Positions 2,561 to 29,267 are shown, counted from the first letter of the stretch. The stretch is DNA of 64,000 nucleotides from Candidatus Heimdallarchaeum aukensis (GCA_021513695.1 CP084166.1:2496001-2560000), one strand, 5' to 3'. Numbers and translations: made by a program. Notes: a model not told the origin generated them from the sequence alone.

Positions 2561-2568
2561 CTAAAAAA

Positions 2569-3108
2569 GTGTCATACGATTTACTATATATTTCATTAAT
2601 GGGCTCATCAGAAAAAGCTGTAGCAAATTCAATATATGCTTCTTTAAAGAATTTAGTTAAAACTGATAAGAAAAATTGGGTTCTGGTGTTTGCAAAATCT
2701 AAATCAACACCAATAAATGGAGAAAGAATTGTTGAAATATTAGATGAGTATAAAAACACTTATACTAAAGCTAAATGGTACAACGCTCCTGTTGATTTTG
2801 ATGAGTTTGAAATTGAAGAATCCAACCTTCTTAAATCAATGGAACAGATAATAAATTATGTGGAAGAAACAGAAAAGAACTACTCTGACATCTTTATAGA
2901 TATAACACCAGGTAGAAAAGTAATGTCTGTTGCAGCCACTCTAGCCGCAATAAATCTCTGTAAATCATCAGAGTTCAATGATATCAAAATAATATACTAT
3001 TTGTTGAAAAATGTTGATGAACATAAAGATAAAGACGCACCTGAACTATATCCTGATGAGTACAAAGTGTCGAGTTGGTCTGTTAAAGATATAAGTAAAA
3101 GAATTTAG
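2569..3108 (+). CDS. small stand-alone CARF-like domain protein (possible cyclic-oligonucleotide sensor or ring-nuclease-like)
   Basis: N-terminal strand followed by polar residues ('LLYISLMGSSEKA'). 'DITPGRK' fits the CARF beta4 signature [DN]x[ST]xxx[RK] and resembles the DxTHG motif of Csx1-type proteins. At 179 aa it is a single-domain protein. GTG start. Confidence 0.45.
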   Translation: MSYDLLYISLMGSSEKAVANSIYASLKNLVKTDKKNWVLVFAKSKSTPINGERIVEILDEYKNTYTKAKWYNAPVDFDEFEIEESNLLKSMEQIINYVEETEKNYSDIFIDITPGRKVMSVAATLAAINLCKSSEFNDIKIIYYLLKNVDEHKDKDAPELYPDEYKVSSWSVKDISKRI

Positions 3109-3118
3109 AGGAAAAAGA

Positions 3119-9922: not shown

Positions 9923-10712
9923 TTGAGTAGATTATTTTGGGCTCTCTTGGTCTGTCAATTTGTATTTGATGCTCATATTTTCCCAGATAGATAGGATACC
10001 AACTTATTTCTTTATCTTTGTTTCGACGATCTTTTTGAGGTTTTGTATACTCATTTAACAAATTTTTTTGGAGATTAGAAAAATCACGCCATTGTTGATC
10101 AATTATATCGCTTTTTAATACATCTTTTTTTATTAGATACTTCATTCTATCTTGAGTAATGGCTGTCCACATGTGCCCATATTCATTTATCCAAATAGAA
10201 CCTGCATTAAGCCAATTATATGAATTCTGCATTCTTCCTCTTAATTGGCATATCCTTTTCAGAAAACTGTTATTAAAATTTTGTACATAATAAGTTATTG
10301 AAGTACTTTTTGTATTACTTTGAATTTTTTCTAGAAAATAAATTCGTCCTTCTCTAGAAAATTTATACTTTGAACCGTGCTTTCTTAAAAATCCTGTCCA
10401 TAAAGAGCCAATTTCTAGATTTCTGGGGTTAATCTCAATATCTTCAAAAACTAACTCCTTATTTAATTGTCCAACATAAACTGGCAACCATTCATTCTTC
10501 TTTTTTCTAATATAAGTAATAATCTCTCTTTCTTCATTAATTATTATTCGACCACTATTCTCCTTTCTGACATCAATTATGTCTTCTATAATCTTTGAGA
10601 CGTCAGTGGTTGTTGGAATTTTTATATCTCTATCTTTGTAGTAAATGCCATCAATATTATAAACATATTTTGACCCTCGAACATGCTTGTCATAAATATC
10701 TCCTTTTTTCAT
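9891..10712 (-). CDS. hypothetical protein made of two copies of the shared module
   Basis: Copy 1: 'KKGDIY..GSKYVYNIDG..ENSGRIIINEEREIIT..PVYVGQL'. Copy 2: 'IGSLW..GSKYKFSREG..AGSIWINEYGHMWT..YPIYLGKY'. ATGA overlap with the upstream gene at 10709-10712. Confidence 0.6.
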   Translation of the reverse strand: MKKGDIYDKHVRGSKYVYNIDGIYYKDRDIKIPTTTDVSKIIEDIIDVRKENSGRIIINEEREIITYIRKKKNEWLPVYVGQLNKELVFEDIEINPRNLEIGSLWTGFLRKHGSKYKFSREGRIYFLEKIQSNTKSTSITYYVQNFNNSFLKRICQLRGRMQNSYNWLNAGSIWINEYGHMWTAITQDRMKYLIKKDVLKSDIIDQQWRDFSNLQKNLLNEYTKPQKDRRNKDKEISWYPIYLGKYEHQIQIDRPREPKIIYSIDDNYDRWFD

Positions 10713-12800: not shown

Positions 12801-13994
12801 ATGGATGTTCTTCTTGCAATAGAATCTGTTCTTTTTGATGAGAAGAAAACTAGTACATACAAATTTGCTTTGGTAACTGCAATTATTGATTATGTCATAG
12901 AAAATCCAAACGAGTTTCCAGAAAACGGTTTTCACTATATACCAATTATTTATCTAGCAAAAAGGTGGTTATATTATTATTATCCATTGATGGTTTATGG
13001 GGAGAGAGGAGTTAGACAAGGATCAACACAGATATCTTTGCATCGATTTATTAGAGAATTTGTTGAAAAGCAAAGGGATAAGTCAATAAATTATTTTGAA
13101 CCTGAAGCAATTCTTAAAATTAAAGAAAGAATAGAAGATAATGAAATATTGGATAAGGAACTGATTTCTTTACTAATAAAGATAAGAAGAGTTATAATAA
13201 GCCAACCTTTACAATTCATTAAAATTGCCAGTAATAGTTTTATTCAAGAAGAGTTAGTAGAAGGAATAAAATTTAAAGATGAAACCTTTTCTCTCTTTGG
13301 ACTATATAACAGTTTACTAAAATATAATGAAAAAGAAAACTATCAAAGTATTAGATCGAAATCAACTAATTGGGAAGGAGAAAGAGGAGAACAAACTTGG
13401 TTGGAATTGGAAGCTGAAGAGACATTATTTATACAAATGGGACATTATACTTACAAAGAATTAGCAGAATCAAGATTTTTTATAAAAGATGCAATAATAA
13501 AAAGATGGTTAGAATATTCAGTAGAAAAGTATCTGCAAGCAGATGCTAAAGCAATTTATGCATTATTTTACGGACTAAAACTACATGAAAAAAGACTGGA
13601 AAGAGAATCAGGAAAAATACAGAAGATGAGAAAAATAGCCTTAACAGTTTTTAAACCGATGAAATGTATTTACTGTGGAAAAGAAATAAGAAAATTTGAA
13701 CTAGATCACCTAATACCTTGGTCAAAGTTTCCAGTTGATAGATTCTGGAATCTCTTTCCAGCATGCGAAAGTTGCAATAGAAAAAAATCAGATAAGATCA
13801 TAAGTATAGAAAGAAATATTCAAAGTAAAATAGCTGAATATTTAAAAGCGTGGCTGGAATATTTTATAGAAAATAAGGAAGAATTGGCAGTCCTAGGAGG
13901 AAAAGAAACTCACAATCTAAATATGGAAAATATAGAATCTTCAATTCATCTGTTATTAGAACAAATAAAAGAAATAAATCAGAATTTAATTTAG
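12801..13994 (+). CDS. HNH endonuclease with ~290-aa uncharacterised N-terminal region
   Basis: C-terminal 'CIYCGKEIRKFELDHLIPWSKFPVDRFWNLFPACESCNRKKSDK' has the CxxC...DH...N...CxxCN pattern. The N-terminus ('TSTYKFALVTAIIDYV') is unassigned. Confidence 0.85.
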   Translation: MDVLLAIESVLFDEKKTSTYKFALVTAIIDYVIENPNEFPENGFHYIPIIYLAKRWLYYYYPLMVYGERGVRQGSTQISLHRFIREFVEKQRDKSINYFEPEAILKIKERIEDNEILDKELISLLIKIRRVIISQPLQFIKIASNSFIQEELVEGIKFKDETFSLFGLYNSLLKYNEKENYQSIRSKSTNWEGERGEQTWLELEAEETLFIQMGHYTYKELAESRFFIKDAIIKRWLEYSVEKYLQADAKAIYALFYGLKLHEKRLERESGKIQKMRKIALTVFKPMKCIYCGKEIRKFELDHLIPWSKFPVDRFWNLFPACESCNRKKSDKIISIERNIQSKIAEYLKAWLEYFIENKEELAVLGGKETHNLNMENIESSIHLLLEQIKEINQNLI

Positions 13995-14013
13995 ACAGAA
14001 GAATTCAGCTTGA

Positions 14014-14400
14014 CTAATAGTCATCTGTTTCTTCTAAACAAATATAATTAAACAACTCAAATCCTTTTTCAGTTAAATTGTTGTTTGTTACCAGCTCTAA
14101 AGACAAAAGAAGATTCAGTAAATCAACAATTGCCTTTTGATTTAAAAAAGAATATTTTCTATGTAATTCAAGAAATAATCTTTTGTATATTTTTGCTTTG
14201 AGTATTTAGTGAGATTTTTGAAAATAAATAGCTAATAATATTTTATACTCTTCTAGATTGATACTAGCTGGAGAAAAAATTTGTAATGAACTTGTATAAA
14301 GATAATTCAATAGCTGTTCATTTTTGATTTTTATTTGATTCTTTTTTTCTATTTTCAAAAGCATTCTATTTTTGTAATTAAGAAAATTATACAAAAACAA
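14014..14400 (-). pseudogene. small wHTH-like gene interrupted by one in-frame TAA (14206-14208)
   Basis: The 64-aa ORF 14206-14400 continues in the same frame for 63 more codons after the TAA ('ILKAKIYKRLFLELHRKYSFLNQKAIVDLLNLLLSLELVTNNNLTEKGFELFN...') to the TAG at 14014-14016. The downstream half has no start codon of its own. Confidence 0.4.
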
Positions 14401-14610
14401 AAGGAAATTTATGATATATGGTTAACTTTTTCCACCGAACTTCTACTTATAAAATATACCAGATAATTATCGTTCACAATAACATTAATGAAAATTTTAT
14501 CCTCTTACAAAAATTTGCTAAAATCTTTTTACAAAAATATTTTAAGGTATCACTGTATGTTTTTCTCATCTCTTTAATGTGTGGGAAAGAAATAGGGTAT
14601 ATAGAAAACC

Positions 14611-15372
14611 GGTAGTGTCTAGTTTTTATACCACCTCCTAGGCAAAAAGGAACTAAGGGGAGGATGTCCCAAGCTCTGATGAGGACGAACGAAATTATAA
14701 TAGAGCATAAAGAGTGTAAGGAAACCAGAAAGATGGGTAGAGCCATAGACGGCACGGATAGAACATGTGCAGTGGAGAATAGAATGAAACCAACGATAGC
14801 TCTTAAGGGTAGCATTAAAACGTTCAATATAGGAGCGTAAACCACCTTTGATAACGGAGATTTTAATACCGAGACGACGTAATACAGGATACCATACCCC
14901 TGCATCTGTAACGACAATACGAGGCTTAGAACCCCAACATTTGAACCAATAACGAAAAGTTAGTAAACATTCAAGATTACTCCGTCCTTTAGTAATACTA
15001 AAACCCAGTAAAGTCTTGTTGTAAGGATCTAACGCGAACCACATGTACATTGAGCCTTGAGAGGTCTTAATCTCTGTTTCATCAACTACTATAATCTCTG
15101 GTATTCCCCCTCTCTCTGCTACAACTCTATGTAAACTTTCCCTAAAGAGCCTGAATTTCTTTACCCAATACCATAGTGCCTGGTGTGTTAAACCATTCTT
15201 CCATGCTACTGTCCTCAAACCATTCTTTGAACCGATATATTCATAAATAGCTCTTATGATTATTTTCTTGGGGATTCTGCTCCCTTTAAAAAGGGAGTAT
15301 ATTCTTAGTTTGTTCATATTTTCACATTAGAATCCCCAATAATATTTTTGTCGGGAGAAACTAGACACCACC
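14611..15372 (-). mobile_element. IS6-like insertion sequence, copy B (762 bp), inverted relative to copy A, with its own flanking direct repeat
   Basis: IRs: GGTAGTGTCTAGTTTTT at 14611-14627, and ...AAACTAGACACCACC ending at 15372 (one mismatch). A 10-bp direct repeat ATAGAAAACC sits at 14601-14610 and 15373-15382. Confidence 0.85.
14619..15317 (-). CDS. DDE transposase (IS6-like), copy B
   Basis: 232 aa, collinear with the 6403-7101 product. Differences cluster in the first 13 aa, with scattered substitutions elsewhere. Confidence 0.85.
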   Translation of the reverse strand: MNKLRIYSLFKGSRIPKKIIIRAIYEYIGSKNGLRTVAWKNGLTHQALWYWVKKFRLFRESLHRVVAERGGIPEIIVVDETEIKTSQGSMYMWFALDPYNKTLLGFSITKGRSNLECLLTFRYWFKCWGSKPRIVVTDAGVWYPVLRRLGIKISVIKGGLRSYIERFNATLKSYRWFHSILHCTCSIRAVYGSTHLSGFLTLFMLYYNFVRPHQSLGHPPLSSFLPRRWYKN

Positions 15373-15423: not shown

Positions 15424-16245
15424 ATGAAAAAAGAGAAAGAGGACGCAATTAAAAAATTTGCGAATATTTTTTCAATGACAGCGGGAAATAGAAGTATATA
15501 TAAACACCTGGATTTTCTATTTAAAGATGATTATAATGGTTCAACAAAGAGAGATCAAATTATCTATTTATTAAAGAAATATTATCCTGATAATAAAAAA
15601 CTTATGTACATCTTAAGAGAGATTTTTGCAGTTCATAATGTTTCTTTTGTTAAACGTAATATTGATAAAATCAATGAATGCCTTATAAATTTTAATCTAT
15701 ATGTTGATGAAAATTTAAAACTTAATGTAATTGATTCTGTGATTATGTGTCTTAATGAGGCTGAATTCATAGTCAATTCTCAATTAGACAATATTCCGAA
15801 AAACTTACCCCAAATGCCAGAAGATATCCTGGAAAAAGGAAAAAATATGGCTTATGCATATTTACTTTTATATATCCTTGAAAATTATTTGAGGTTATTC
15901 ATAAGCCAAGCTAATAAGAATAAAAAATTAGAATACAGCGCTGGACAGAAAAAGAAAATAGAAAATAGAAAAAATCAAGAAGAAAAAAACACGTATCACG
16001 CTGTAAGAGGTACAAATGATCTCTTTTATCTTGATCTTAGTGATTTATGTTCTATAATTGTAAATAATTGGAATAGTTTTATTAAATATTTTCCAAATCA
16101 AAATTTCATCAAAACTAGGCTTGAGGAATTAGTAATAACACGGAATCACGTTGCTCATAATAGTATCATTTCTGACAATGATTTCAGGAGATTAATAACA
16201 TATTTTGAAGATATCCTTAATCAAATAGCCTTTTACTTTCATTAA
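15424..16245 (+). CDS. HEPN-domain protein (Swt1-like R-N-x-x-A-H motif) with unknown N-terminal region
   Basis: 'LEELVITRNHVAHNSIISDNDFRRL' near the C-terminus matches the Rx4H HEPN signature. Confidence 0.5.
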   Translation: MKKEKEDAIKKFANIFSMTAGNRSIYKHLDFLFKDDYNGSTKRDQIIYLLKKYYPDNKKLMYILREIFAVHNVSFVKRNIDKINECLINFNLYVDENLKLNVIDSVIMCLNEAEFIVNSQLDNIPKNLPQMPEDILEKGKNMAYAYLLLYILENYLRLFISQANKNKKLEYSAGQKKKIENRKNQEEKNTYHAVRGTNDLFYLDLSDLCSIIVNNWNSFIKYFPNQNFIKTRLEELVITRNHVAHNSIISDNDFRRLITYFEDILNQIAFYFH

Positions 16246-16317: not shown

Positions 16318-17919
16318 TTATTTCTCAAGTTCTTCTTTTATAGATGGAGTTACCCCCCCATGTTTCATTCTACGTTTCTTAATATTAACTAAAAGTGTAA
16401 AAGGAACAGATAATCCTGTAACCATAGCTTCACCAGTAGCTAGCCCTTTAATTGCTTCGAAATCTTCTTTTGTCATATGTTCTGCAATGTTTTGTACATA
16501 ATTTTGGTCTTTTGGATTCATCATTCTTAGTATAAAATGGGTGTTACATTGGCTTAAAATGTCTGCATCAACTTTAGAAGGTCTTTGTGATACAATACAC
16601 AATCCCATACCAAATTTTCTTCCTTCAGAAGCAACTCTTGCAATTATCTGTTTAGAAGCAGAAGGGCTTGTTCCTGGAGGAATGAAATTATGTGCTTCTT
16701 CAATAATTGTTAAAAATGGCTTTATTTTTGATTCATAACTTGTTTTCCTCAAATCAAAGAGTTTTCTTAGAATTAATCCTACTAAAGCTTGTTGATCAAA
16801 AGCTTCAATTCCTCCTAAGTCTAATATTGATATTTGCCCTTTCTTTACAAATTCTGAAACATCAGTTCCTTTTCCAAAAGTAAAATATGGTCTTTTCAAT
16901 AGTGCTCTCATTTTATTTTCAAGTGCTCTTCTTGTTCCTTTGTGTTCTATTCTTTCTATTGACTTTTCTATTAATTCCTCAATGCTGGTTGGAGGATTTC
17001 CATCAAGTGCTTCCATATGTATTTCATCCCAACCTCGATCTAATGATGCACTCTGAGCCTCTGAAATACCATAGTACTGTGAAAGTAAAGTCTTGATTTG
17101 CCATGTCTCTAACTCTGCTGGATGAAACTTAACACTAATTGTTACTCTTTTTCTTCCATGAACATCTTCAAACTTCTTTTCAAGTAAATAATTAAATTCT
17201 CCAGGAACAAATGTTAGTACTGACTTTGAGATTTCACGTGCTTCTCTTGAATCTTCATTAGGAATAAGTGTTGAAGAATATTCGCTATGAGGATCAATAA
17301 GAATGATGGGTAGTTTGAGATTATCTATTAAATATAATTCTTCGAGAATAACACCAACAGTATAACTTTTTCCTGCTCCTGTCATTGCTAAAACTGAAAA
17401 ATGATGTGTTACAAGTTTTTCATAATCTATATATGCTGGAACATTATGATTATCTCTCAAATTACCAATAATAATTGTTCTATCCTTAATGAAAAAAGAA
17501 GAAACAAATTCATCATCGGCCATATAAATAATTGTACCAGGATTAAGAGGGATTCGAGGTCTGACAAAGGCATTTCCTATTTTTCTTCCAATTATTAAAA
17601 CTGAAAATCCCATCATTCCAGCAATTTCAGAAGCTAATCCTAAATGTTCAATAGTCATAGAACTTGCCTCTAAGTCTTTTGTTCTAAGTTTTGGCATCAT
17701 ATTTTCATCTAATAGTAATCTGTTTTTTGTCCAAACAGATATAACTCTCCCTAGTAAAAATTCTTGTTTTTTATTTTCATCTAGATATTGTATTTTTACT
17801 AGTCTACCAATACCAATACTTGGCGAGTCTTTCAGAGCAATTGCTTCTACCAAGTATGGTGTTGTTTTTCCATAAACTATTCCAACAGGTATGTTTTTTT
17901 TCTCTCTATTTTGTTCCAT
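16318..17919 (-). CDS. herA: HerA-type (DUF87/FtsK-HerA superfamily) ATPase
   Basis: Walker A 'LAMTGAGKSYT', Walker B 'LTIIEEAHNFIP', 'GMGLCIVSQRPSKVD'. The N-terminal barrel-like region is 'PVGIVYGKTTPYLVEAIA'. Lies 9 nt downstream of the nurA-like gene. Confidence 0.85.
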   Translation of the reverse strand: MEQNREKKNIPVGIVYGKTTPYLVEAIALKDSPSIGIGRLVKIQYLDENKKQEFLLGRVISVWTKNRLLLDENMMPKLRTKDLEASSMTIEHLGLASEIAGMMGFSVLIIGRKIGNAFVRPRIPLNPGTIIYMADDEFVSSFFIKDRTIIIGNLRDNHNVPAYIDYEKLVTHHFSVLAMTGAGKSYTVGVILEELYLIDNLKLPIILIDPHSEYSSTLIPNEDSREAREISKSVLTFVPGEFNYLLEKKFEDVHGRKRVTISVKFHPAELETWQIKTLLSQYYGISEAQSASLDRGWDEIHMEALDGNPPTSIEELIEKSIERIEHKGTRRALENKMRALLKRPYFTFGKGTDVSEFVKKGQISILDLGGIEAFDQQALVGLILRKLFDLRKTSYESKIKPFLTIIEEAHNFIPPGTSPSASKQIIARVASEGRKFGMGLCIVSQRPSKVDADILSQCNTHFILRMMNPKDQNYVQNIAEHMTKEDFEAIKGLATGEAMVTGLSVPFTLLVNIKKRRMKHGGVTPSIKEELEK

Positions 17920-17928
17920 TTTCCTTCC

Positions 17929-19053
17929 TCAATGTAGTAATTTTCTCATTTTTGAATTAATCAAATCTCTGGCAATATCTGGTGCAATATCTCGTATCTC
18001 ATAAATTAGTTGGGTAAAGACTTTGGATGAAAATGATTTTGTTACTCTTGTAAGTTCGTCTACAAAAACTAAAGGATAAGGATATCCAACAACAGGTGAA
18101 ATCCGACATAAGTCATTAAATAATTCAAATAGTGAGTCCAATTTGGATAAATCCCATTTTGGAAATTCTAGATATAGTGCATGAGATGAATTAGGATACA
18201 AATAATAGGTACTACAAACACCTTCTCTTTTTAAGATTGAAATTGGGATTTCACCATGGGTGATACCAGCGACTGAAACATCTAAAGGTTCAAAATAAGC
18301 TGGTTTATCAGGCGAATATTTTCGTATTATATGTTGTAAAGCTATTCTTTCTCTCCAAGATTCATTTTCAATTAAATTTCGAAGAATTTCTAACTTTTCT
18401 TTATTAATATTTAATTTATCCATTACTTCCTTATCACACTTTAAAGCTCTTAGATATTTAGCTCTTCTCGCATCTTTTGATACTGCAATTACACTCACTT
18501 TACTCTTTTTTAAAGCTAAATTAAAAAAATCATTAGCATTTTTTTGATACTTTAGGAAAGCATCTGACAATTCTCTTATGTTAGTAACATTTACAGAAGT
18601 ATCAGGAAATGTGATAGCTCCATCAAGTAAAACAAGAGTTGGAATATCATCATCTATTTCATTAATTGCTTTTTTTGCAACATAATATTCTAAAGACTTC
18701 ATGAAAGTGGATGAAACTATTGAAGCTATATCTGAAGCTGGAGTATCAAAAAGTTGAATATCATTAAAATCAGTAATTTTTGCCTTTCCAAGTGTAATCA
18801 TAAAGGCTCGAGCAGAAGCAACAGCAAATCCCACTCCTTCTAAAGATGTATGATCCATCCCCCCATCAACGGCTATAACTCTCCAATTTTCATCTGAAAA
18901 TGATTTATATTTTGGAATATTTATGATAAGATCTTTTAAAATTTTGAAGTTATTGGCCTGTCTTCTAACTTTTGCAACAAGTTTTGGTACTTCTATTCTT
19001 CTATATCTATCAATTTCTTTCATAATAAGATTGAAATTATCCATTATCTTCAC
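17929..19053 (-). CDS. nurA: NurA-like nuclease
   Basis: 'WRVIAVDGGMDHT', 'LVLLDGAITFPD', 'VIAVSKDARR' and 'VGYPYPLVFVDELTRV' match conserved NurA blocks. Adjacency to herA supports the call. Confidence 0.72.
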   Translation of the reverse strand: MKIMDNFNLIMKEIDRYRRIEVPKLVAKVRRQANNFKILKDLIINIPKYKSFSDENWRVIAVDGGMDHTSLEGVGFAVASARAFMITLGKAKITDFNDIQLFDTPASDIASIVSSTFMKSLEYYVAKKAINEIDDDIPTLVLLDGAITFPDTSVNVTNIRELSDAFLKYQKNANDFFNLALKKSKVSVIAVSKDARRAKYLRALKCDKEVMDKLNINKEKLEILRNLIENESWRERIALQHIIRKYSPDKPAYFEPLDVSVAGITHGEIPISILKREGVCSTYYLYPNSSHALYLEFPKWDLSKLDSLFELFNDLCRISPVVGYPYPLVFVDELTRVTKSFSSKVFTQLIYEIRDIAPDIARDLINSKMRKLLH

Positions 19054-19783
19054 ATTCTTTTAGCTTGTTATCTAATTCTGGCCATTTCAGCCTTAGTTGA
19101 TGTAATCTGTCATTAAAATCTGTAGCACATCCAATTTTTTCGTCTTTAATCTCTAAAATGCCTTTTTCAATAAAAATTTCCATCCATTCTGATATTTCAT
19201 CAATCTCAGCTAATCTGTAAAAATCGCTTAGGGATATTGATTCTCCGAAACTCATCAAAAAGGTTAATGAACGTTGAATTCCATCCCATACTCTTTTAGA
19301 GAATTTTGGAAATGCAGCTTCAGATACTGTGATATTTTTGAATATCTCTTTAAATATGTTTTTTATCAGTTCTGTTTCAAGTTTTCTGTGATACTCTGTA
19401 AAGTATGGCAAACAATAGATAAAGTTGTCTCGAATGATAGCAATAATGTGTTTTTGGAATTTAATTGTTTTGTCTTTAGCTTCTATTCCAACGTTTCCAA
19501 CTTTCAAGATTTCTCTCTGATTTTCAAATTTGATTGAATCTAAAGTAACCTCACAACTTTTTATCGTTTTACAAAAATGTTCAATATCTATTTTAGAAAG
19601 AGCGATTATTATTCCTATGCGGTTACTAGTTATTTCTTTTTTATAGTCTTCAATTAATGAGTAAGTAATTAAGATACAATTTGATTGTTTAATATCATCT
19701 GTTCTTGAAAATTCAGTGTCTTCTAAAATAAATTTTAGAGGATTATATATTTGAGGAGGAATGAACATCTTCATACTTAACAC
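19037..19783 (-). CDS. hypothetical protein (248 aa), operon member
   Basis: Its 3' end overlaps the nurA-like start by 17 nt. Its start abuts the stop of the 1224-aa gene. No motif recognised. Confidence 0.5.
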   Translation of the reverse strand: MLSMKMFIPPQIYNPLKFILEDTEFSRTDDIKQSNCILITYSLIEDYKKEITSNRIGIIIALSKIDIEHFCKTIKSCEVTLDSIKFENQREILKVGNVGIEAKDKTIKFQKHIIAIIRDNFIYCLPYFTEYHRKLETELIKNIFKEIFKNITVSEAAFPKFSKRVWDGIQRSLTFLMSFGESISLSDFYRLAEIDEISEWMEIFIEKGILEIKDEKIGCATDFNDRLHQLRLKWPELDNKLKECEDNG

Positions 19784-22700
19784 CTATGTAGAAATTGTTT
19801 TAATAATTAGTTTTCTATTAATTAGATCTTCTATACAATTATCTACTTTATTTTTACCAAACTTTTCGTACAATTTTTCTAACTCTATTGCTCTCTTTGG
19901 TCCCTCTTTTCCTATCTCAAAGGCTATATCTTTATATTTAGTGAAATGTTCTTCTAAAAATTTATCTGTTACTTGTTTAAGATTGTACAAATCGTCAATA
20001 ACATTAAAAGATATTTCACGTTTTGAATCAACTTTATTAAGTAAACTAGGGATTTCATTAATACTTTTTACATCTTGATTTGATAGGATTAGATCTATAT
20101 TTCGTTCCTTTATCCAATTAAAAAAATTTGAAATTTGATTTAGAATTTTTTGTACATTGCGAAGCAGTATAGTTTGAATATCCTTATAAAAAGTTTCAAT
20201 TTCAGCACAAATTCGTGCAAACCAATCTAAGTATTTGTTAGCAAAAAACGGATCCTCTGGTAGTTCTGCTTTTAAGACATCATTTTCTAATTCTCTAAAC
20301 TCTCTCTCACCAATTTTATCTATGATTGATGAAATTTCAGTACTATTCTCAAAAACATAATCCCATTTTTTAATATCAACCAATTTTAGATTTTTTAAAG
20401 TGCTTAAGTATTTGTTAATAATTTCTGTTTGTTTTTCTAGTTTGGAATACAATGAAGATATTTGACTTTTAGCTTCAATGTGCTTGTTAAGTTCCTTCTT
20501 TATATTCTCAATTTTTACAATAGCTTTGTTTATTTCATTAATTTTCTTTATTGAATTTAATACACTAATGATTTTTTGAACAATATTATTAATTTTCGGA
20601 TCTGATTTTTTACTATGTTTATTACATTCTGCACTTATCTGTTTTAACAAAATTCTTAAGCTTTCTAGCTCACTTGTCACTTTTGAATAATCTTCTTCAT
20701 ATGCTTCAACTACTTCTGAAAAATCCCTCAATTTTTCATGTAATTTGCTTCTTTCATTGTAAATTTCAACTAATAATTCTCCTGTAATGTCAATAAAGTT
20801 TTTAGGTACTATTTCTTCAATATCTTTAGCATTTTTCTCAATTTCAGAAAGTTCATTTTCTAAATTCTTCAACTCTTGTAAAGTTTCAATTTCTAAATTG
20901 ATTGTGTGAGTATTTTCAGAAAAATCGACTCTAATAGTTTCTAACTCTGTAAACTTCTCAACTAAATTTAAATATTGTTTGGTTACCTCGTTAAGGTAAG
21001 TTCTATCCAATTTAGGATTGTAAAAATCAAATTTAAATTTCTTTTTTGCCTTTGGTGCTTGATCTATTAGAATACCTTTTACTGTTAGGAGTCTGAGGAT
21101 CTCTATTTCTTCTAAAATTGAACATGAAAGAGCATATCGTCTTCTTAATCTTATTCTTGCCAATTCAGGATCAATAGAATGAGCAAAAACAGAAAACAGT
21201 TCTATTATATCACGTTCTATTAAACTTAATTTTTGTACTTTATTGAACTTGAAAAGGCTACCAAAGCGTTCAAGTTTAGTTTTTAATTCGTTTATTTTTT
21301 GGTTGTTGGGTTCTTCTGAAACAATTTCTTCCCATAATTCATAATAAGTATCTAGTAGATCGTTAAAATCTCTTTTTTGGAAAATTCTATTGTCAAGAGG
21401 TATTCTATCCATTTTGTCAAATTCAGTTCTTATTTCCTTTTGAGTGTTGGTAAGCCAAGTAATGAAATTGTTTTTTATATCATCATGATTTTTCTCTTGA
21501 TGTGTTTCTTTTGGATATAAAATGTGAATTAGATCTTTTTTAGGAATTCCATACACTTTAATTAAAGGACTGTCTCTAGGTTTTAAATCCACTATTCCAG
21601 TTAATTCTTGTGATAGTTTTTCATGTTTGATTATTTCGTCTGTTTCTTCAGGCACCAAAAATGTAATTGCTTCAAAAAGTTCTGAACTTTTTACACATAA
21701 CTTTAGGTAGGTTTTAAGAATATCTTTTATATCCTTCTCTATTGATGGCTTAGCAAGCATGATTGCATTTTTTGGAGAGTCAATTGCACATACCAAATCG
21801 TTAATATTCTTATCTTTAGTTCCTAAAACGGAAATATAATGCATTTTTAGTATTTCTTTTAGATTTTTTGAGAATTTAACTGATATTTTTCTAGAAGATT
21901 CATTATCAAATTGCTGTAATGCTTTTCTCTCACCACTTATTTCTATACCTCTTATCTGTTTTTCTTTAATTTCATTTTTCCATCTTTGTTCAGAAATAAG
22001 TATATATGATTTTGCTTTGTTTTCAAACAATTCTCTTAATTCTTCATTTAACGTTTTCAGATTTTTTTTCTTAACTGCAATATAAGTGTTATATTCGCTA
22101 ACTGGAACTGTAGTAGGATCGTAATTATTCTTTACTAAATCATTATCAATATATGTTGCATACTTTTTAATAAGTCTGATATTTCTGTATTGACTGTCTT
22201 TTTCGCTGTATTCGATGTCTTTAACTATTTCTTCGTAATTTTCTATATTATCTTCATAATTAATAATTAATAAATCATCAACAAGACCTGAATCGATTAA
22301 CCGGTTTTTAAAGAATTCTACCAAATTTTGATCGATGTAATTTTTAAGTTCAGCATCAGAAATTGCAGAGTGGTCAAAATAAATTCGAAAAAGTAATTTG
22401 TAGATTGTTTCTTCATTAATGTTTATTTCTTTTGCAAACTTTCTTGCTACCTCAATTAACGAGGAATTAATCTTTCTTAACGCATTTTCAAAATTCTCAT
22501 TATTTAATCCTAAGATTTCAGGTTTTTTTATTATCTCTTCAAAATGTTCTAAGGTGAATTGAATTATTATTTCTTCTTTTCTTTCTAAGGTTTTTTTTGC
22601 TAAATACACCACTAGTCTATCCATCAATTTTATTAACATTCTTGTATTAACATAGGTATATTCATGTACTAAGGCAGAAAGCTTAGCTAAAGCTAAAGCA

Positions 22701-23458
22701 GTTCCTTCACTAAATGGATAATAAGGGTTTTTTAAATTAATTAAATTCCTTAAATCTTGATTTGCGTAAAAGTAAATGTAGCGACGAACTAATCCAGCCA
22801 TCTTCCAATCTTCAGGCTCTGGAATTATTATTTTGAATCCAATTAATCTATTATCACTTATATCCGGGTGGTAACTTAAGACATAATTCCAAGATGGAAC
22901 ACCAAAACCTAAAACTAGCATAATATTTTTGAAATCACTAAACCTATCATTTCTTTCTAAAAATCTCCTAAAATCTTTAAAGAATCGATCCGCATCGTTT
23001 CTTGATATCTGATTATTTGAAATCATTCTAGGAATATCATCTATTTCATCGATAAAAATAATAACTCGTTTTGAGGTATTTTCATCTTTTAAATTTCTAG
23101 ATAATTGTTTTTTTAAAAAAGAGTATAAATTTAGTGTGTCTCTACTAAATTGAGTGAAAATTGATATTATACCTATACTTTTAGTATATCTAGCAAGATA
23201 TTTCATAAGTTCAGATTTTCCTGAACCATATTCACCAATTACTGCTAAAGCAATATTGTCCCTATAATTAGTTGATTCTTCTAGTTTTCCGATAGCTCGT
23301 ATTAAAGCATTTCTTACCCCTACTGGAGGTGGAACATCTTCGTCCAATCCTTTAGTAACCCCCATTGGATTAAAAGGATTACTTGTAAAACCAACCTTTT
23401 TGAATAAATTCATTTCGTTACTCATATTTAAAATCCTCCTTAATTTCAGTAATCCCAT
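19784..23458 (-). CDS. large P-loop NTPase (N-terminal AAA/ORC-like core) with ~900-aa Lys/Glu/Ile-rich helical, probably coiled-coil, extension
   Basis: Walker A 'GEYGSGKS' (aa 75-82) and Walker B 'VIIFIDEIDD' (aa ~131-140) lie close together at the N-terminus. The rest is low-complexity helical sequence. The true start is possibly Met12 or Met16. Confidence 0.65.
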   Translation of the reverse strand: MGLLKLRRILNMSNEMNLFKKVGFTSNPFNPMGVTKGLDEDVPPPVGVRNALIRAIGKLEESTNYRDNIALAVIGEYGSGKSELMKYLARYTKSIGIISIFTQFSRDTLNLYSFLKKQLSRNLKDENTSKRVIIFIDEIDDIPRMISNNQISRNDADRFFKDFRRFLERNDRFSDFKNIMLVLGFGVPSWNYVLSYHPDISDNRLIGFKIIIPEPEDWKMAGLVRRYIYFYANQDLRNLINLKNPYYPFSEGTALALAKLSALVHEYTYVNTRMLIKLMDRLVVYLAKKTLERKEEIIIQFTLEHFEEIIKKPEILGLNNENFENALRKINSSLIEVARKFAKEININEETIYKLLFRIYFDHSAISDAELKNYIDQNLVEFFKNRLIDSGLVDDLLIINYEDNIENYEEIVKDIEYSEKDSQYRNIRLIKKYATYIDNDLVKNNYDPTTVPVSEYNTYIAVKKKNLKTLNEELRELFENKAKSYILISEQRWKNEIKEKQIRGIEISGERKALQQFDNESSRKISVKFSKNLKEILKMHYISVLGTKDKNINDLVCAIDSPKNAIMLAKPSIEKDIKDILKTYLKLCVKSSELFEAITFLVPEETDEIIKHEKLSQELTGIVDLKPRDSPLIKVYGIPKKDLIHILYPKETHQEKNHDDIKNNFITWLTNTQKEIRTEFDKMDRIPLDNRIFQKRDFNDLLDTYYELWEEIVSEEPNNQKINELKTKLERFGSLFKFNKVQKLSLIERDIIELFSVFAHSIDPELARIRLRRRYALSCSILEEIEILRLLTVKGILIDQAPKAKKKFKFDFYNPKLDRTYLNEVTKQYLNLVEKFTELETIRVDFSENTHTINLEIETLQELKNLENELSEIEKNAKDIEEIVPKNFIDITGELLVEIYNERSKLHEKLRDFSEVVEAYEEDYSKVTSELESLRILLKQISAECNKHSKKSDPKINNIVQKIISVLNSIKKINEINKAIVKIENIKKELNKHIEAKSQISSLYSKLEKQTEIINKYLSTLKNLKLVDIKKWDYVFENSTEISSIIDKIGEREFRELENDVLKAELPEDPFFANKYLDWFARICAEIETFYKDIQTILLRNVQKILNQISNFFNWIKERNIDLILSNQDVKSINEIPSLLNKVDSKREISFNVIDDLYNLKQVTDKFLEEHFTKYKDIAFEIGKEGPKRAIELEKLYEKFGKNKVDNCIEDLINRKLIIKTIST

Positions 23459-24176
23459 AAGTGCCAGGTATGATGTTCTCGACTCCTACACCAAATTTAA
23501 ATTGAATCTGAAGATCATCTTTCAGTGTTTTTAATAGATTAAAAGCAGTTTCTAACGTCATTACTTTATTTGATTCTAGCACCTTCTGGGTAAAGCACTC
23601 TATGATGTCATATGTTCTCAATTGCTTTATTTTGGCTTCTTTTGAGATAATTCCTATACATTTTTTAAACAAACTAACATATGTTCTTGTTGTCATCTTG
23701 CTTTCATAATAAATTCCTTCTGATTCCTTTTTTAGTAATGAGCTCATTATTGCTAATGCTGTTAAAGTGTTAAATGTAGGTTCAGGAAGATTCCAACCAT
23801 AACTGAACTGTTTCTCCTTGATTAAATTAAAAAGGGATTTTTTACTTTCAAAAAATTTATCACTACTTTCATCTAAAAAATCAGTTAAAACTCTATATTG
23901 AGGTATCTGACTCATTAAAATGTTATGAAGCAAATCTGAAAACTTATCTTTTTCATTACGAAATTCAAACAATTTTTGACCATTTTGTGTGAATTTTAGA
24001 TATTTATTTTTCTCTTCTTCAATAATTCCAAGCTGTTTCATGAGTCTTCTAACATCATTACCTGATGTATCAAATTGTTTAAACTGTTCTACTGGAATTT
24101 TCCCTTTATATAGACCTATGGCTGTTAAACACCTCATAAATGAACCTTCAGTAACTTGAGGTAATGATTTAATCAT
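23418..24176 (-). CDS. hypothetical protein (252 aa), first gene of the HerA/NurA-containing operon
   Basis: Long ORF overlapping the next gene. No motif recognised. Confidence 0.5.
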   Translation of the reverse strand: MIKSLPQVTEGSFMRCLTAIGLYKGKIPVEQFKQFDTSGNDVRRLMKQLGIIEEEKNKYLKFTQNGQKLFEFRNEKDKFSDLLHNILMSQIPQYRVLTDFLDESSDKFFESKKSLFNLIKEKQFSYGWNLPEPTFNTLTALAIMSSLLKKESEGIYYESKMTTRTYVSLFKKCIGIISKEAKIKQLRTYDIIECFTQKVLESNKVMTLETAFNLLKTLKDDLQIQFKFGVGVENIIPGTYGITEIKEDFKYE

Positions 24177-24259: not shown

Positions 24260-25267
24260 AAGCATGTCCAAAAATTCTTTTTCACCAACTATACAGTCCG
24301 AAGGAGTAAACGGTAGTTATAACAGAGGAGAGAACTGTACAAGGTAGAAAGGATGGTAGAGGGTAAGCGATCAAGTATCGGGGGAAGAGAGAGTTTGAGG
24401 AGACCAAAGACATGTTCAATACTACTACGATACTCGGGGTGGTGATTATGACGATAGAGACCAGGGTAGAGACGATGAGCTTGAACTATTGGTCCAAGAG
24501 GAGGAGGAGAGGGATAACGAGCATTACTTTTTGGGGGAATAACAGGAAAAAAGGAATGTTGGCTAAGAAGACCGACGATATTTTCTGTCCAGTAGGCACA
24601 GTCTCCATAGAATCGCAAGAAAGGTCTCAAGAGTGCAGAAGGAAGTTTCTGCCATAACAAACCGAAGACTTTACTATCGTGAGTGTTACTAGCAGAATGA
24701 GTAAGAGAGACTATAGCTCGAGAGGGTAAACCAACTATAAGGTGTATCTTCCAGAAAAGTTTAGTTTGGAGGTTTTCTTTAGTCCTCCTCTTGCCCACTT
24801 GAGAAAACGCCAAACAGAAGCTTGACGGATTTTAAACCCTGAACTATCCACCGCCATAGCTTTCAACCCTTTTTTCCTCACTATTTTCCTACCTAAATCT
24901 ATTATCCACCGCTCCAGCAACTCACTTTCTGTCGCTCTCCACACTGCATGAAAAGTAGATTTGGAAGGAATCTTCTTCATCCACCCCTCTTCTATCAAAA
25001 AAGCGCATAAAGACAACTTTTCCTCTAACTTCCTCCAAGCAATTCCTTCTATTCTAGCAATGATCGCTAAAGCCAGTATCACCCATCTTTCTGCTATTCT
25101 CTTTCTCCCTCTCTTGCTTTCTCTCGGTTCCTCTTTCACCAGTTTCTTAAGGAAAGGTTCATTAATGATTATGAATTCTCTTGCTTTGTGGGGGTCTATG
25201 ATCTGAAAGAAATTCATACTTCCGACATAAACCCCCACATTAATAAAAATTAATTTTTGGACATGCT
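24260..25267 (-). mobile_element. IS5/IS4-superfamily insertion sequence (~1.0 kb), visibly GC-richer than its flanks
   Basis: Perfect 16-bp IRs: AGCATGTCCAAAAATT (24261-24276) and AATTTTTGGACATGCT (25252-25267). Direct repeat TTAAGAAAA at 24251-24259 and 25268-25276. Confidence 0.8.
24289..25238 (-). CDS. DDE transposase split into two overlapping ORFs (24735-25238 and 24289-24813); the frameshift is either programmed or inactivating
   Basis: 'AMAVDSSGFK' (D) is in the first ORF. 'WKIHLIVG...THDSK', 'FYGDCAYWT' (D) and 'YRSSIEHVFGLLK' (E, K at +7) are in the second. The overlap contains 'CTAAAGAAAAC'. Confidence 0.7.
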
Positions 25268-25282: not shown

Positions 25283-26515
25283 TTAGTTTATTTTGTTTAT
25301 ATCTTCATTTTCTAAATAGTAATCTTGAATTATGTCAGAAAGATTGTAATTTTTAAAATATCCATTATTTAACTCTATTATGAATGGAATATATTTTCTT
25401 AATGGAGAGGTCTTTAAATACGTTTTTAACTGTTCTAACTTATCGCTAGTAAAGGGTAACATATTTTTTATTCGTTCAAATTCGTTTAAATAAACGTAAG
25501 CATTATGTAAAGCTCTTAAGTTAAAGCTTTTATCTAAATTCTCTCTTGTATGAGGATTCACTCCGCATTCGCATTTTAAAAATTCTTCTTCATGTTCTTC
25601 TTCGAGAACTTTTCTTGATTTATTTTTTCTAGGAAATAGAAATCTATCTGACAGTCCTGGTAATTGTATCGCGCCATGAGCAGCTTTTAATCTCCATCCA
25701 ACAGAATCAACAGAATCAGCTCCCGCTCCATAAATGAGATTCATTGTTGTAGTTCCTCCAATGCCAAATACATGAAGTTTACTTTTAGGAAACAATTTTT
25801 TGACTAATGCCGTTGCAGCAAAAACGAACATTGGGGCATTTAACCTTTTATCTTTTGAATGTGTTGGAATATTCTTTGAACCTTTGCTATATTTTAATAA
25901 TGGAACCATTGAACCTAATCCTATCCACTTTGGATACGAATTAGTATAATCTTTGTAAATCTCTAGGATTTTTTTAGAATAATTAATAATTTTTCTAAAT
26001 GAATGACCGTGAACGACAGGTATTAACGTTGTATCCAGATTTGCTTGTAACATCTTTTCTAAATTATCTAGTGTTTTTTTTTGCCTGTAATAGTTTTTGG
26101 AATATGTGGCTGTAGGATCTAAAGGATGATCTAAAACTACTGCATAATCCGGTGATGCCTTATTATACAATTTTATTAGATCTTCAACTTTAATTGAGAT
26201 ACCTTGTTTTTTTTGAAAAATAAAACCTCCACTATCCATCATAACATTAGAATTAATTTCTAAAAAATTTTTTAATCCTTTTTTCTCAATTTTTTCTCTA
26301 ATTTTTGGCTTGAAAATAATTTCTGCTCCATTTACTAAAATTCCTACATTTTTTGAAGTAAACTTGGCTATACTTTTGACTTTAGGTTGTGGATTTATAG
26401 GTGTTCCAAACCAAAAAAAAAGGTCATTTTTACCAGAGTTATTATCGAATATGTCACTTACTATCTGTTGCTCAGTTTTTTCATCATCAGAAGAAATTTT
26501 ACATGTAGTAATCAT
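25283..26515 (-). CDS. tRNA-guanine transglycosylase (TGT)-fold protein, DpdA/TgtA5-like candidate
   Basis: 'MMDSGGFIFQ' corresponds to the TGT DSGGFQ motif. 'LHVFGIGGTTTMNLIYGAGADSVDSVGWRLKAAHGAI' corresponds to the GxGxP...GxDxFD...A..G block carrying the second catalytic Asp. 'CECGVNPH' is only a partial Zn motif. No PUA-like C-terminus was seen. Confidence 0.65.
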   Translation of the reverse strand: MITTCKISSDDEKTEQQIVSDIFDNNSGKNDLFFWFGTPINPQPKVKSIAKFTSKNVGILVNGAEIIFKPKIREKIEKKGLKNFLEINSNVMMDSGGFIFQKKQGISIKVEDLIKLYNKASPDYAVVLDHPLDPTATYSKNYYRQKKTLDNLEKMLQANLDTTLIPVVHGHSFRKIINYSKKILEIYKDYTNSYPKWIGLGSMVPLLKYSKGSKNIPTHSKDKRLNAPMFVFAATALVKKLFPKSKLHVFGIGGTTTMNLIYGAGADSVDSVGWRLKAAHGAIQLPGLSDRFLFPRKNKSRKVLEEEHEEEFLKCECGVNPHTRENLDKSFNLRALHNAYVYLNEFERIKNMLPFTSDKLEQLKTYLKTSPLRKYIPFIIELNNGYFKNYNLSDIIQDYYLENEDINKIN

Positions 26516-27122: not shown

Positions 27123-29267
27123 ATGGTTCAACCGAAGAAGCTTTATAGTTTTTTAGATTCAGAATTAAAAACTTATCAGTTTCCAGAATTTCAAAGACCA
27201 TATGTATGGGGCCAAAATGAGATATATGATTTAATTGATACAGTAGTAAGGGGATATTCTGTTGGATTGATACTACTTTGGGAAGGAGATAGTAATGCTC
27301 TGAATTATTCTCTTCGAGATTGGGTATCTCCTCCAAGCAATAGTGATCGTTTAAGACTAAAGTACATTCTAGATGGACAACAAAGAATAAAAACACTTTC
27401 AAGAACCTTCGGAATTGATTTTTTAGTCAATAATGGTTTTATGTCAGAAGTAAAAACTGATTCAATTCCAAGAGCACTCTCCAAATACCCATATTTTATT
27501 TTTCCATCTCGATCAAATTTCTTAAATGTTACAAAAAACAAAAAAAATCGCTGGGTTAGTTTCGATATTTTCTTAGATTTAGCTAAAGTTGACTTAAGTA
27601 AAGAAAAATGGTATGAACGCATATCTCCTGATTGCTGGGTTTCTTTATTGGATATTATGAGGATGAATTGGAAGAAGGAAGAAATAGCAGAATTTAGCAT
27701 ATTAACTGAGAAAAAAGGTCCACTTAATAATTTAGAATTTTTTATTGTTGAGTATAAAAATGGTAAAATTGAAAGAGATAACCCAAACAACAAGTGGTAC
27801 AAAAAACAAGAGGATGGTGTTCAAGATACAAACTTAGTAAAACCAATTAGATTCATTTACATTAACTCATTAGAAAATATAGAAGATATAATTAAATATT
27901 TTAGATTATATTACCAGTTAAACGGAAGTATTCAAATTTCTCAAGATAAAAATTTTCTACATTTAGAACTTAGGCGAGAATTGATTTCACTACTAAAAAT
28001 AAAGCCAACAGATATAGATTTATTATTTCAAGAAACAGAATCAGCAGAACTTACACAGTTAACGCATTACTTTTCTAGGTTAAATAGAGCTGGTGTGTTA
28101 CTGGATGTAGTTGATTTGCTTATAGCAAAAATTTATGGTGAGAGAAATGAGCCGTTTCCTTTGCGCAATATCTTACAGAACACCTTTAGCGATGATACTC
28201 TTCGAAATTTTTTTAATCTAAAAGATGATGATGACCCAAGTACAAAATTTAAACTATTATTACAAGTAGTTTCTCTTTACTTTTATAACAAACTATCTGA
28301 TGATGCAATATTAAAAATAACGCAGCAAAATTTGTTAGATTTTGAGTTTGAGAAATTCTCGATGACATCTATTCCAATAAATAAGAAAGTATTAATACGT
28401 GAATCATGGAGAAAAACAATAGAATTTTTGAGAGAGAAACTTGCTATAAATTCTATTTCTAAATTAAGGTATGACCGGTTGTTTGTTATATTAATGGCAC
28501 TTAATTATCATGTTTATAAAGAAGAAATACTAAACAAAAGCTATAGAGACTTATTTGAGAATGAGTTTGATGAGATTCTCAAAGTTTGGATACTAAGGGA
28601 ATCTATATCGTTCAATCTAGCAACTGGAAGTAATAAACCTCCTGAAAGATATAAAACATTTATAAATAAGAGTATACCTTCTATAATACGATGCATTGAA
28701 AATGAAGAAGAAATAAGTAGAAAAGAAATATTAGATGAAATATTCGTTCCCACTTTGTCAGATGAAAACTTATCAGATAAGGAGTTTGGAAAAGCTCTAA
28801 TGAGTATTTTGTTGAAAGAAAATGGGATTTACGATTTCTACGATAAAACATTGTCAAAAAAGATCACAACTTGTTCTCAAGTTATTGAAGATACAATAGA
28901 GCTACATCATATTTTTCCAAAAAATATGGTTAATGATGCCAATTTAAAGAGGGTATTTGATATAGGATTAAACTTGACACCTTTAAAGAAAAAGACTAAT
29001 AGTGATAAACTTGGTAATAAACACCCATTTAAATATATTCAAGAAATGATGGGGGAGATTCAAGATGAAGCTATATTCAACGAAATAATGAACTCTCATT
29101 GGTTGCCAGAATTAGAATGGTGGCGTGATATTATGCAAAAATACGATTATCCAGATAATGAAGATGCAATAAAAAATGTTGAGAAAATAAAAGAGCAATT
29201 TGATTTATTTATTGAAAAAAGAAAAGAAATTGTTTTAGATAAAATCAAACCCCTCTTATACTTATAG
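27123..29267 (+). CDS. GmrSD-family type IV (modification-dependent) restriction enzyme: N-terminal DUF262, C-terminal DUF1524
   Basis: 'YQFPEFQRPYVWGQNEIYDLIDTVVRGYSVG' and 'DGQQRIKTL' indicate DUF262. C-terminal 'IELHHIFPKN...GLNLTPLKKKTNSDKLGNK' indicates the DUF1524 His-Me finger. Confidence 0.8.
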   Translation: MVQPKKLYSFLDSELKTYQFPEFQRPYVWGQNEIYDLIDTVVRGYSVGLILLWEGDSNALNYSLRDWVSPPSNSDRLRLKYILDGQQRIKTLSRTFGIDFLVNNGFMSEVKTDSIPRALSKYPYFIFPSRSNFLNVTKNKKNRWVSFDIFLDLAKVDLSKEKWYERISPDCWVSLLDIMRMNWKKEEIAEFSILTEKKGPLNNLEFFIVEYKNGKIERDNPNNKWYKKQEDGVQDTNLVKPIRFIYINSLENIEDIIKYFRLYYQLNGSIQISQDKNFLHLELRRELISLLKIKPTDIDLLFQETESAELTQLTHYFSRLNRAGVLLDVVDLLIAKIYGERNEPFPLRNILQNTFSDDTLRNFFNLKDDDDPSTKFKLLLQVVSLYFYNKLSDDAILKITQQNLLDFEFEKFSMTSIPINKKVLIRESWRKTIEFLREKLAINSISKLRYDRLFVILMALNYHVYKEEILNKSYRDLFENEFDEILKVWILRESISFNLATGSNKPPERYKTFINKSIPSIIRCIENEEEISRKEILDEIFVPTLSDENLSDKEFGKALMSILLKENGIYDFYDKTLSKKITTCSQVIEDTIELHHIFPKNMVNDANLKRVFDIGLNLTPLKKKTNSDKLGNKHPFKYIQEMMGEIQDEAIFNEIMNSHWLPELEWWRDIMQKYDYPDNEDAIKNVEKIKEQFDLFIEKRKEIVLDKIKPLLYL

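Follow-up and report, generated by a model that had tools for sequence, protein, structure and literature searches.

How invaders are stopped by bacteriophage exclusion (BREX) systems is a matter of debate, and no core part of these systems is understood less well than BrxC. The biochemistry of the NurA-HerA pair is well known, and TGT is a modification enzyme of known chemistry. Here we describe a locus of Candidatus Heimdallarchaeum aukensis in which a giant ATPase with a predicted BrxC-like layout is encoded together with NurA, HerA and a TGT-fold enzyme. The locus lies in a stretch of 64,000 nucleotides (GCA_021513695.1, CP084166.1:2496001-2560000), referred to below as the window. The closest described system is BREX-Related Capture (BRC), which consists of a DUF6079 BrxC-like protein, PglZ, a STAND NTPase, DUF4007 and HerA/FtsK, with GNAT/TGT in a subset, and which was reported from 45 taxa (PMC12839542). 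BRC is rare, it occurs in archaea as well as bacteria, and its HerA was described as DndH-like (PMC12839542). The window locus has in common with BRC a BrxC-type giant, a HerA/FtsK translocase in one operon, a TGT and small accessory proteins. On the other hand, PglZ, DUF6079, DUF4007, the STAND NTPase and GNAT were undetected here by profile, NurA is an added component in the nuclease slot, and the HerA is of the archaeal repair type rather than DndH-like. NurA is not mentioned in the text and text supplements of PMC12839542 or in the text of the HerA-capture paper PMC10853773, and no relevant paper linking NurA with BrxC, DpdA or TGT was found in open-access text.

We propose that the ATPase is the ATP-driven, DNA-sensing scaffold of a five-gene operon (gene A, the ATPase, gene C, NurA and HerA) that works with the TGT, and we give this reading a probability of about 0.5. 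The coupling of a BrxC-like ATPase, HerA/FtsK and TGT in BRC was counted as a precedent for it (PMC12839542). By analogy, the best reading of the system as a whole is an undescribed archaeal variant of the BREX/Dpd-like kind, whose function we infer.

The giant ATPase and its predicted BrxC-like layout

The ATPase gene (gene B; 19784..23458) is an intact open reading frame (ORF) of 1224 codons according to the ORF list and its translation; this gene, the rest of its operon, the TGT and the intervening insertion sequence (IS) all lie on the minus strand. The real start is probably at 23425, giving a protein of 1213 aa, because both full-length homologues begin at the position of M12 of the window protein. 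The original prediction held that the protein is not Rad50/SMC-like despite its coiled-coil look and that both Walker motifs lie close to the N-terminus, and our analysis agrees. In regular-expression scans, the sole Walker A motif was GEYGSGKS (residues 75-82; 23213..23236), and the sole hhhhDE match was IIFIDE (residues 133-138), within the Walker B motif VIIFIDEIDD (residues 132-141; 23036..23065). No CxxC was found in the whole protein, whose six Cys residues are scattered, which bears out the claim that the helical region has no zinc hook. The scans likewise returned no LSGG signature and no second Walker B, as had been claimed for the C-terminal part, and the Pfam families SMC_N, AAA_23 and Rad50 did not match. 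Although the giant ATPase resembles Rad50/SMC/DndD proteins in its long helical region and in the NurA-HerA-type association known in archaea, the SMC/Rad50 reading was rejected, since the head is unsplit, signature, zinc hook and hinge are lacking, and the fold is AAA+ rather than ABC.

Several residues are conserved throughout the family, in 13-19 members from both branches described below. K81, D137/E138, R204 and R273 are invariant, and R144, which follows Walker B, is nearly so. Within Walker A, G78 and G80 are also invariant and Y77 nearly so. Further invariant or nearly invariant elements among 19 members are R164xxLE, the Box VII-like D199xxxxR204 and the sensor-2-like R273xx(I/L)K. 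By position and motif, R204 (22847-22849) is a candidate Arg finger and R273 (22640-22642) a candidate sensor 2. Because Walker A, Walker B, R204 and R273 are conserved across the family, the ATPase looks competent for both catalysis and oligomerization. Ahead of the P-loop stands the family motif NPFNPMGV (residues 27-34; 23357..23380), followed by a VGxR/ExEL element; P(F/L)xPxGV is kept in 19/19 aligned members, and the VGxExEL-like element is nearly invariant.

Two AlphaFold (AF2) models were built from 3-sequence alignments, the first of which covers residues 12-830, and the domains were called from the modelled secondary-structure strings together with Pfam helix-turn-helix (HTH) matches in homologues. 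An AAA+ base with a helical lid was predicted at about residues 46-315 (22514..23323) by model and fold search. It is followed by a first wHTH (winged helix-turn-helix) domain at about residues 345-400 (22259..22426), modelled as three helices and a strand; TrmB/HTH Pfam matches fall at this place in the homologues P0016 (27.9 bits, gathering threshold 25.6) and P0005 (E 2.7e-4). The predicted alpha/beta middle domain (about residues 408-652, ~245 aa; 21503..22237) is poorly conserved, with about 9 strands interleaved with helices and a three-helix insertion, and it had no match in Pfam, PDB or PADLOC. A modelled helical linker joins it to a second wHTH at about residues 746-812 (21023..21223), where three helices and a two-strand wing were predicted with a local confidence score (pLDDT) of about 50-64; the ALSCS...KGILI block of this domain is kept in the A1 alignment. 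The helical, coiled-coil-like arm (about residues 815-1183, ~370 aa; 19910..21016) is the least conserved part. A heptad-periodicity scan flagged residues 822-1026 and 1070-1126, and the model has helices of 50-56 residues at 893-948, 974-1025 and 1070-1119. At the end lies an HTH/winged-helix-like module (about residues 1186-1224; 19787..19903), in which G1186 is kept as far as the Thermoproteales, as is the C-terminal L..L...Y(V/I)T block. Weak HTH Pfam matches at the C-termini of P0005, P0016 and P0017, and a profile match to the archaeal winged-helix chain 2xvc, support this module. The ORC-like head and the long helical arm of the original prediction were thus both recovered, with the arm confined to the C-terminal third, but the three intervening domains and the terminal HTH had been overlooked.

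In the fold search, ORC/Cdc6 chains came top and the solved BrxC N-terminus was 7th, with classical AAA proteins within one Z unit. Foldseek concurred (ORC2, 4e-5; ORC4, 8e-5), and its alignments of about 400-500 columns are long enough to take in the first wHTH. In the model, which comes from a shallow alignment, two short helices (about residues 106-122) follow beta2, where an initiator-specific helical insert would be expected. As modelled, the head is an AAA+ module of the ORC/Cdc6-STAND type. The likeness to Orc1/Cdc6 extends to the AAA+ base, lid and winged helix, the sensor-2 xxR..(I/L)K and the Box VII-like D(I/V)xxxR, whereas the giant ATPase is three times larger and has neither origin context nor a sequence-level match to these proteins.

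BrxC has been described as an ORC/Cdc6 AAA+ domain, a wHTH, a ~200-aa fast-evolving alpha+beta domain, a second wHTH and a coiled coil of 250-500 aa, in a protein of 1200-1300 aa (PMC12839542 section 16). The domain order in our two models equals this published description, the comparison being one of order, and we are largely confident in the predicted fold and architecture, that is, an AAA+ head in a BrxC-like layout. The giant ATPase differs from BrxC/PglY in its extra terminal HTH and in its partners, which are NurA-HerA and TGT, not PglZ and PglX. The loose resemblance to BrxC/DUF499 that had been suggested therefore stands as far as domain order goes and fails at the profile level. The BrxC, DUF6079 and DUF499 profiles had no match at E<=0.1 in the window protein or seven relatives, and PF10923 (BrxC_BrxD) matched the window protein weakly at residues 72-108 (16.9 bits, E 3e-3), below its gathering threshold of 22.2.

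A profile of the head from 13 sequences returned 6 proteins in a word pre-filtered search. The nearest outgroups were the PF10923 proteins P0060 (E 1.9e-9) and P0062; the hhalign probability for P0060 was 98.3% over the N-terminal 76 columns, which include the NPF segment. Two Thermoproteales relatives, P0012 (27.2 bits) and P0013 (33.3), exceed the PF10923 gathering threshold, just over profile positions 15-92 of 414. Because PF10923 proteins are the nearest outgroups and these two members score above gathering, we place the head, judging by sequence, beside the BrxD/BrxC-type ORC/Cdc6-STAND ATPases. An N-terminal segment of the NPF type, the VGxE element and the region of Walker A are common to BrxD and the giant ATPase, but BrxD is a stand-alone ATPase of ~370-440 aa and its match to the giant covers only about 80 residues. 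The part after the head has no sequence relatives beyond the family. We regard the ATPase as an orphan family that has the architecture of BrxC, not as a demonstrable member of the BrxC family.

Other database matches were few. Pfam returned weak P-loop matches at residues 68-172 of the window protein (AAA, E 3e-4; ABC_tran, E 0.085, P-loop only), while NCBIfam and PADLOC returned nothing meaningful, so that no confident match to a characterised family emerged from the three collections. The PADLOC matches to LmuB (E 3.5e-3) and DruC (E 0.016) were rejected as compositional because they fall in the coiled-coil region. Searches of PDB sequences with the single protein and with 3-sequence and 17-sequence profiles gave coiled-coil noise and, as the best match, the P-loop/Walker B stretch of ClpX (E 5e-3). 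The stretch IFIDEIDDIPRMISNNQISRN (residues 132-147; 23020-23065, minus strand), running on from Walker B, is nearly collinear with the 'IDEIDxIxR' type of ClpX. This likeness is probably convergence of a common AAA+ motif, since the ranking of folds gives the ClpX clade no preference.

The operon, its relatives and the adjacent TGT

The order in the window is TGT, an IS4/5 insertion, gene A, the giant ATPase, gene C, NurA and HerA. Gene A (252 aa; 23418..24176) overlaps the ATPase start by 8 nt and gene C (248 aa; 19037..19783) begins at the base after the ATPase stop codon; the operon junctions overlap or abut, and the ATPase gene is translationally coupled to its neighbours. The NurA nuclease (374 aa; 17929..19053; Pfam NurA, E 1.5e-11) has the RNase H-like acidic triad D63, E122 and D144, which is invariant in 6/6 NurA proteins from these loci. 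The hexameric translocase HerA (533 aa; 16318..17919) matched Pfam DUF87 (6e-36), HerA_C and HAS-barrel, and PADLOC HerA (4e-56). The order A-ATPase-C-NurA-HerA is identical in the window and in the related loci L001/L002, L003 and L007, and the partial loci L004, L005 and L008 have the same local order. This fixed order was kept despite an ATPase identity of 21-44% between the four complete loci, and it was counted in favour of one functional system. The conserved gene coupling suggests NurA as a working partner of the ATPase, joined in the Asgard-type branch by HerA and TGT; it is probable that the ATPase and NurA-HerA-TGT form one functional unit.

Genes A and C are orphans. Gene A, whose length in the low-GC branch is about 250 aa, directly precedes the ATPase gene in the window, L001/L002, L003, L004, L005 and L007, and it had no match in Pfam, PADLOC or PDB. 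At the position of gene C, every locus, those of the Thermoproteales included, has a gene of 170-306 aa (240-300 aa in the low-GC branch), and its three subgroups show no detectable homology to each other and cannot be aligned. For either gene, no Pfam or PADLOC match at E<=1 recurred among members. The assignment of genes A and C as BrxA/DUF4007 and BrxB was rejected, as profiles, PDB searches and hhalign gave no support, and the analogy is positional only.

The tandem NurA with an intact triad and HerA with a HAS barrel recall the canonical Mre11-Rad50-HerA-NurA operon. In contrast to that operon, Mre11 and Rad50 are lacking here, the setting is a defence island, and the scores are far below equivalog level (NCBIfam: NurA, 23 bits against a cut-off of 400; window HerA, 208 against 970). 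On the L007 contig, another NurA-HerA module is present beside that of the system: its NurA (312 aa), which is much more divergent, and a HerA-like protein (486 aa) are encoded on the other strand (2-2394, minus), ~2 kb upstream of gene A.

The family is rare. Among 5.8 billion proteins searched there were two homologues, with identities of 43% and 35%, and one came from a Heimdallarchaeaceae metagenome-assembled genome. An exhaustive hmmsearch of 1.84 billion representative proteins gave 18 proteins at E<=1e-3, including two more low-GC full-length members, P0005 and P0006, and proteins of 950-1140 aa from Pyrobaculum, Thermoproteus and Vulcanisaeta, whose annotation reads 'hypothetical' or 'ATPase' throughout. 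No match was found among 185,579 species-representative genomes in a pattern-limited scan that missed the Thermoproteales members by design, and 2 extra loci were found in 241 million metagenome records. Two branches can be distinguished, a low-GC Asgard-like one with the fixed gene order and a Thermoproteales one with a chromosomal triad. The triad consists of the ATPase (950-1140 aa), an orphan of 170-220 aa and a NurA-like protein of 250-307 aa, and was seen in P. neutrophilum (L011 10001-14104; CP001014.1), L012 and L006; the complete genomes with relatives include those of P. neutrophilum and V. souniana. In the deposited annotation all triad members are hypothetical. An SMC-like gene was seen in the L006 region and, in part, in L012; L006 also has an actin-family gene, which we take to be possibly crenactin/arcadin.

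Upstream of the IS insertion lies a short TGT-fold, DpdA-like transglycosylase gene that the original prediction had also overlooked (410 aa; 25283..26515; Pfam TGT, 3e-15; ArcTGT 1iq8, E 4e-8; PADLOC DpdA, 2e-8). A TGT is adjacent in 4/4 independent loci with both flanks visible, on the upstream side in the window and in L001/L002, and on the downstream side in L003 and in L007. Its residues D94, D129, D270, C315, C317 and H337, the substrate and nucleophile Asp and the Zn ligands, are invariant in all four. The protein aligns to ArcTGT 1iq8 without the PUA-containing C-terminal half, which is the tRNA-binding part. The absence of the PUA together with the intact catalytic Asp and Zn ligands was counted in favour of the scaffold reading. 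Its only relatives in the phage collection were the TGTs of the Sulfolobus viruses STSV1, STSV2 and STSV4. Downstream of the TGT in L007 are genes for a PCNA-like protein, QueT (1e-29), an N-terminal fragment of QueC (1e-17) and DUF2400. The likeness to Dpd systems (DpdA-K) consists of a TGT-fold enzyme beside restriction-type genes, with preQ0 genes nearby in one locus. The differences are that DpdB, DpdC and DpdD-K are missing here (DpdA being the sole Dpd match in PADLOC) and that the TGT is nearer to archaeal tRNA TGT and the STSV1/STSV2 enzymes than to bacterial DpdA.

The same enzyme could in principle act in the reverse, type IV-like direction, removing or exchanging 7-deazaguanines in viral DNA and so producing lesions that the ATPase recognises and NurA-HerA degrades. 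Archaeal viruses encode related TGTs, so hosts would meet deazaguanine-modified DNA, a type IV enzyme, GmrSD, is the next gene in the window, and a preprint reports that glycosylases serve in defence against modified bases (bioRxiv 10.1101/2025.10.29.685425). We regard this direction as improbable, as the QueT and QueC neighbours of the TGT in L007 speak for supply of a precursor, hence for insertion and not removal, and none of the catalytic and Zn residues of a transglycosylase has been lost.

The IS between the TGT and gene A (24289..25238) is of the IS4/IS5 type, with a DDE transposase in two overlapping ORFs (Pfam DDE_Tnp_1, 3.6e-8) and a GC content of 0.345 against about 0.28 around it; it is not part of the system. 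In the same gap, L002 has an IS with an rve integrase (2220-3131) and L001, with an identical ATPase, has 120 nt alone. The junction has the appearance of a site hit by insertions more than once, and expression of the TGT may be uncoupled by the insertion. Integrase and transposase remnants flank the window locus, which, with the ORC/Cdc6 proteins as best structural matches, would also suit a function in a mobile element, with the ATPase as an ORC-like initiator or partition ATPase and NurA-HerA serving element replication or packaging. Such a function is very improbable: the conserved block has no replication, capsid or conjugation genes, it recurs in different flanking contexts, and the IS are insertions into the block, not members of it.

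Some features of single loci were also noted. The PCNA-like protein of L007 (364 aa; 13617-14711, plus strand) has N-terminal PCNA_N (23.5 bits, cut-off 20.3) and Hus1 matches, and on visual inspection the ~100 residues at its C-terminus resemble an HTH; it would be unusual for a DNA transglycosylase to have a partner of the sliding-clamp type. In the partial loci, the sequence upstream of gene A differs. A small HEPN-like ORF was seen by eye in L004 (11-562, plus strand), and restriction-endonuclease-like and HNH-like ORFs in L005 (32-1908, minus strand). No TGT lies upstream of gene A in L004 or L005, where the visible flank is the upstream one.

A possible role in modification-guided restriction

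On the scaffold reading proposed above, the TGT would exchange guanines of host DNA for preQ0 or a derivative and thereby mark self. The ATPase would oligomerise on DNA by means of its Arg finger, and the surface formed by the wHTH, alpha/beta and second wHTH domains would read the modification status. The helical arm and gene C would dock the NurA dimer and the HerA hexamer, and unmodified foreign DNA would license NurA-HerA to translocate and degrade it processively. The solved BrxC-BrxB-PglZ complex (9zll and 9zn5, both in the fold-search list) is a precedent in which a small adaptor connects a BrxC head with the effector. Self and non-self would be distinguished as in BREX and Dpd; 7-deazaguanine would substitute for PglX methylation, and NurA-HerA for PglZ. 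Modification-guided restriction of this kind, drawn by analogy with those systems, we put at slightly less than an even chance.

The ATPase may, in addition, carry out the ATP-dependent step for which DpdA relies on DpdB. A narrower explanation makes this its only role: the ATPase would stand in for DpdB, loading or activating the TGT on DNA and picking target sites, while NurA-HerA would act independently on unmodified DNA. DpdA is reported to require the ATPase DpdB for preQ0 insertion (PMC10164549, via PMC12839542), and no DpdB homologue was found here. In type 1 BREX, BrxC is among the components generally required for methylation of self DNA (PMC12839542). Against this, gene C and NurA, rather than the TGT, are the genes to which the ATPase gene is coupled, the TGT side varies between loci, and the Thermoproteales keep ATPase and NurA without a TGT; we therefore think it unlikely that the ATPase is a modification-side motor only.

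Several findings weigh against the scaffold reading. The models have overall pLDDT values of 63.5 and 76.8 and predicted template modelling scores (pTM) of 0.36 and 0.50; the head reaches a pLDDT of 70-82 in the model of residues 12-830, but the second wHTH and the alpha/beta domain are of low confidence. The link to BrxC is drawn from the predicted fold, the domain order and an N-terminal profile match of ~76 columns. In the operon genes no match to BrxC, DUF6079, DUF499, BrxA, BrxB, PglZ, PglX, DpdB or DpdC profiles was found, and PglZ and PglX were also absent from the window ORFs of at least 230 aa that were scanned and from the related loci, in line with the earlier remark that BREX partner genes are not nearby. 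The Asgard-type branch is known from only about seven loci, so that the TGT linkage is drawn from four independent ones. The TGT itself scores 72 bits with the NCBIfam model of archaeal tRNA TGT and 29 bits with that of DpdA (cut-off 200), both below cut-off. Finally, the Thermoproteales triad lies in housekeeping-type, non-island chromosomal surroundings with neither HerA nor TGT nearby, which fits a repair role, at least in that branch.

The Thermoproteales setting leads to the explanation that the family serves housekeeping DNA-end processing, with the ATPase replacing Rad50 or assisting HerA as a loader by which NurA (and HerA) would reach DNA breaks or forks that have stalled; the TGT would then be an incidental neighbour or a tRNA-modifying enzyme. 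The HerA proteins of the system score best against archaeal double-strand break (DSB) repair HerA models (208-251 bits), and no Mre11 or Rad50 is present to fill the role. However, the Asgard-type branch is extremely sporadic, as the searches above showed, and its loci lie in defence islands, are struck by IS and stand beside a PUA-less TGT (4/4), once together with QueT and QueC. In L007 a second NurA-HerA pair is found beside the system. On balance, we judge housekeeping end processing unlikely.

A more novel reading takes in both branches. The family may be an unrecognised group of AAA+ ATPases of BrxC architecture with NurA as the ancestral obligate partner, forming a chromosomal, HerA-free machine of ATPase, adaptor and NurA in the Thermoproteales. 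In Asgard-type archaea, HerA, a DNA-binding protein and a DNA-guanine transglycosylase would have joined this core, giving a restriction system with 7-deazaguanine self-marking and a DSB-resection engine as executioner. We put this forward tentatively, as a possibility with the odds against it. If true, it would add a third chemistry to BREX-like immunity and a first defence role for an archaeal NurA-HerA pair. With the locus, 7-deazaguanine marking of DNA would reach beyond bacteria and viruses to archaeal chromosomes, possibly those of Asgard archaea. The triad of the Thermoproteales suggests that NurA has a partner besides HerA and bears on archaeal DNA-end processing. The locus also offers a simpler, testable arrangement of sensing, marking and killing.

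The surrounding defence island

Most of the window is one long defence island of ~48 kb (1-48000), in which the system is embedded. On the HerA side of the system are a PLD nuclease (990-2522), a ResIII helicase (7409-9922), a NERD protein (10709-12403), an HNH protein (12801-13994) and HEPN_Swt1, matched in PADLOC as PDC-M34B (15424-16245). Beside the system on the TGT side is GmrSD (27123-29267), followed by a 1240-aa protein with UvrD and PD-(D/E)XK domains (30500-34222), a second ResIII helicase (38666-41659), an N6/N4 methylase (43013-45574), DUF3800 (45954-47033) and AAA_14-DUF4143 (47353-48540). A restriction-modification-like cluster and IS, integrase and transposase remnants also occur in the island. 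This setting, with HEPN, GmrSD, NERD, HNH, PLD, the restriction-modification cluster and IS, was counted in favour of a defence function. The start of the UvrD and PD-(D/E)XK gene is overlapped by an ORF of 1151 aa without a Pfam match (34212-37667, minus strand), and the two may together form a pair of the AddAB type in which the second subunit is an orphan.

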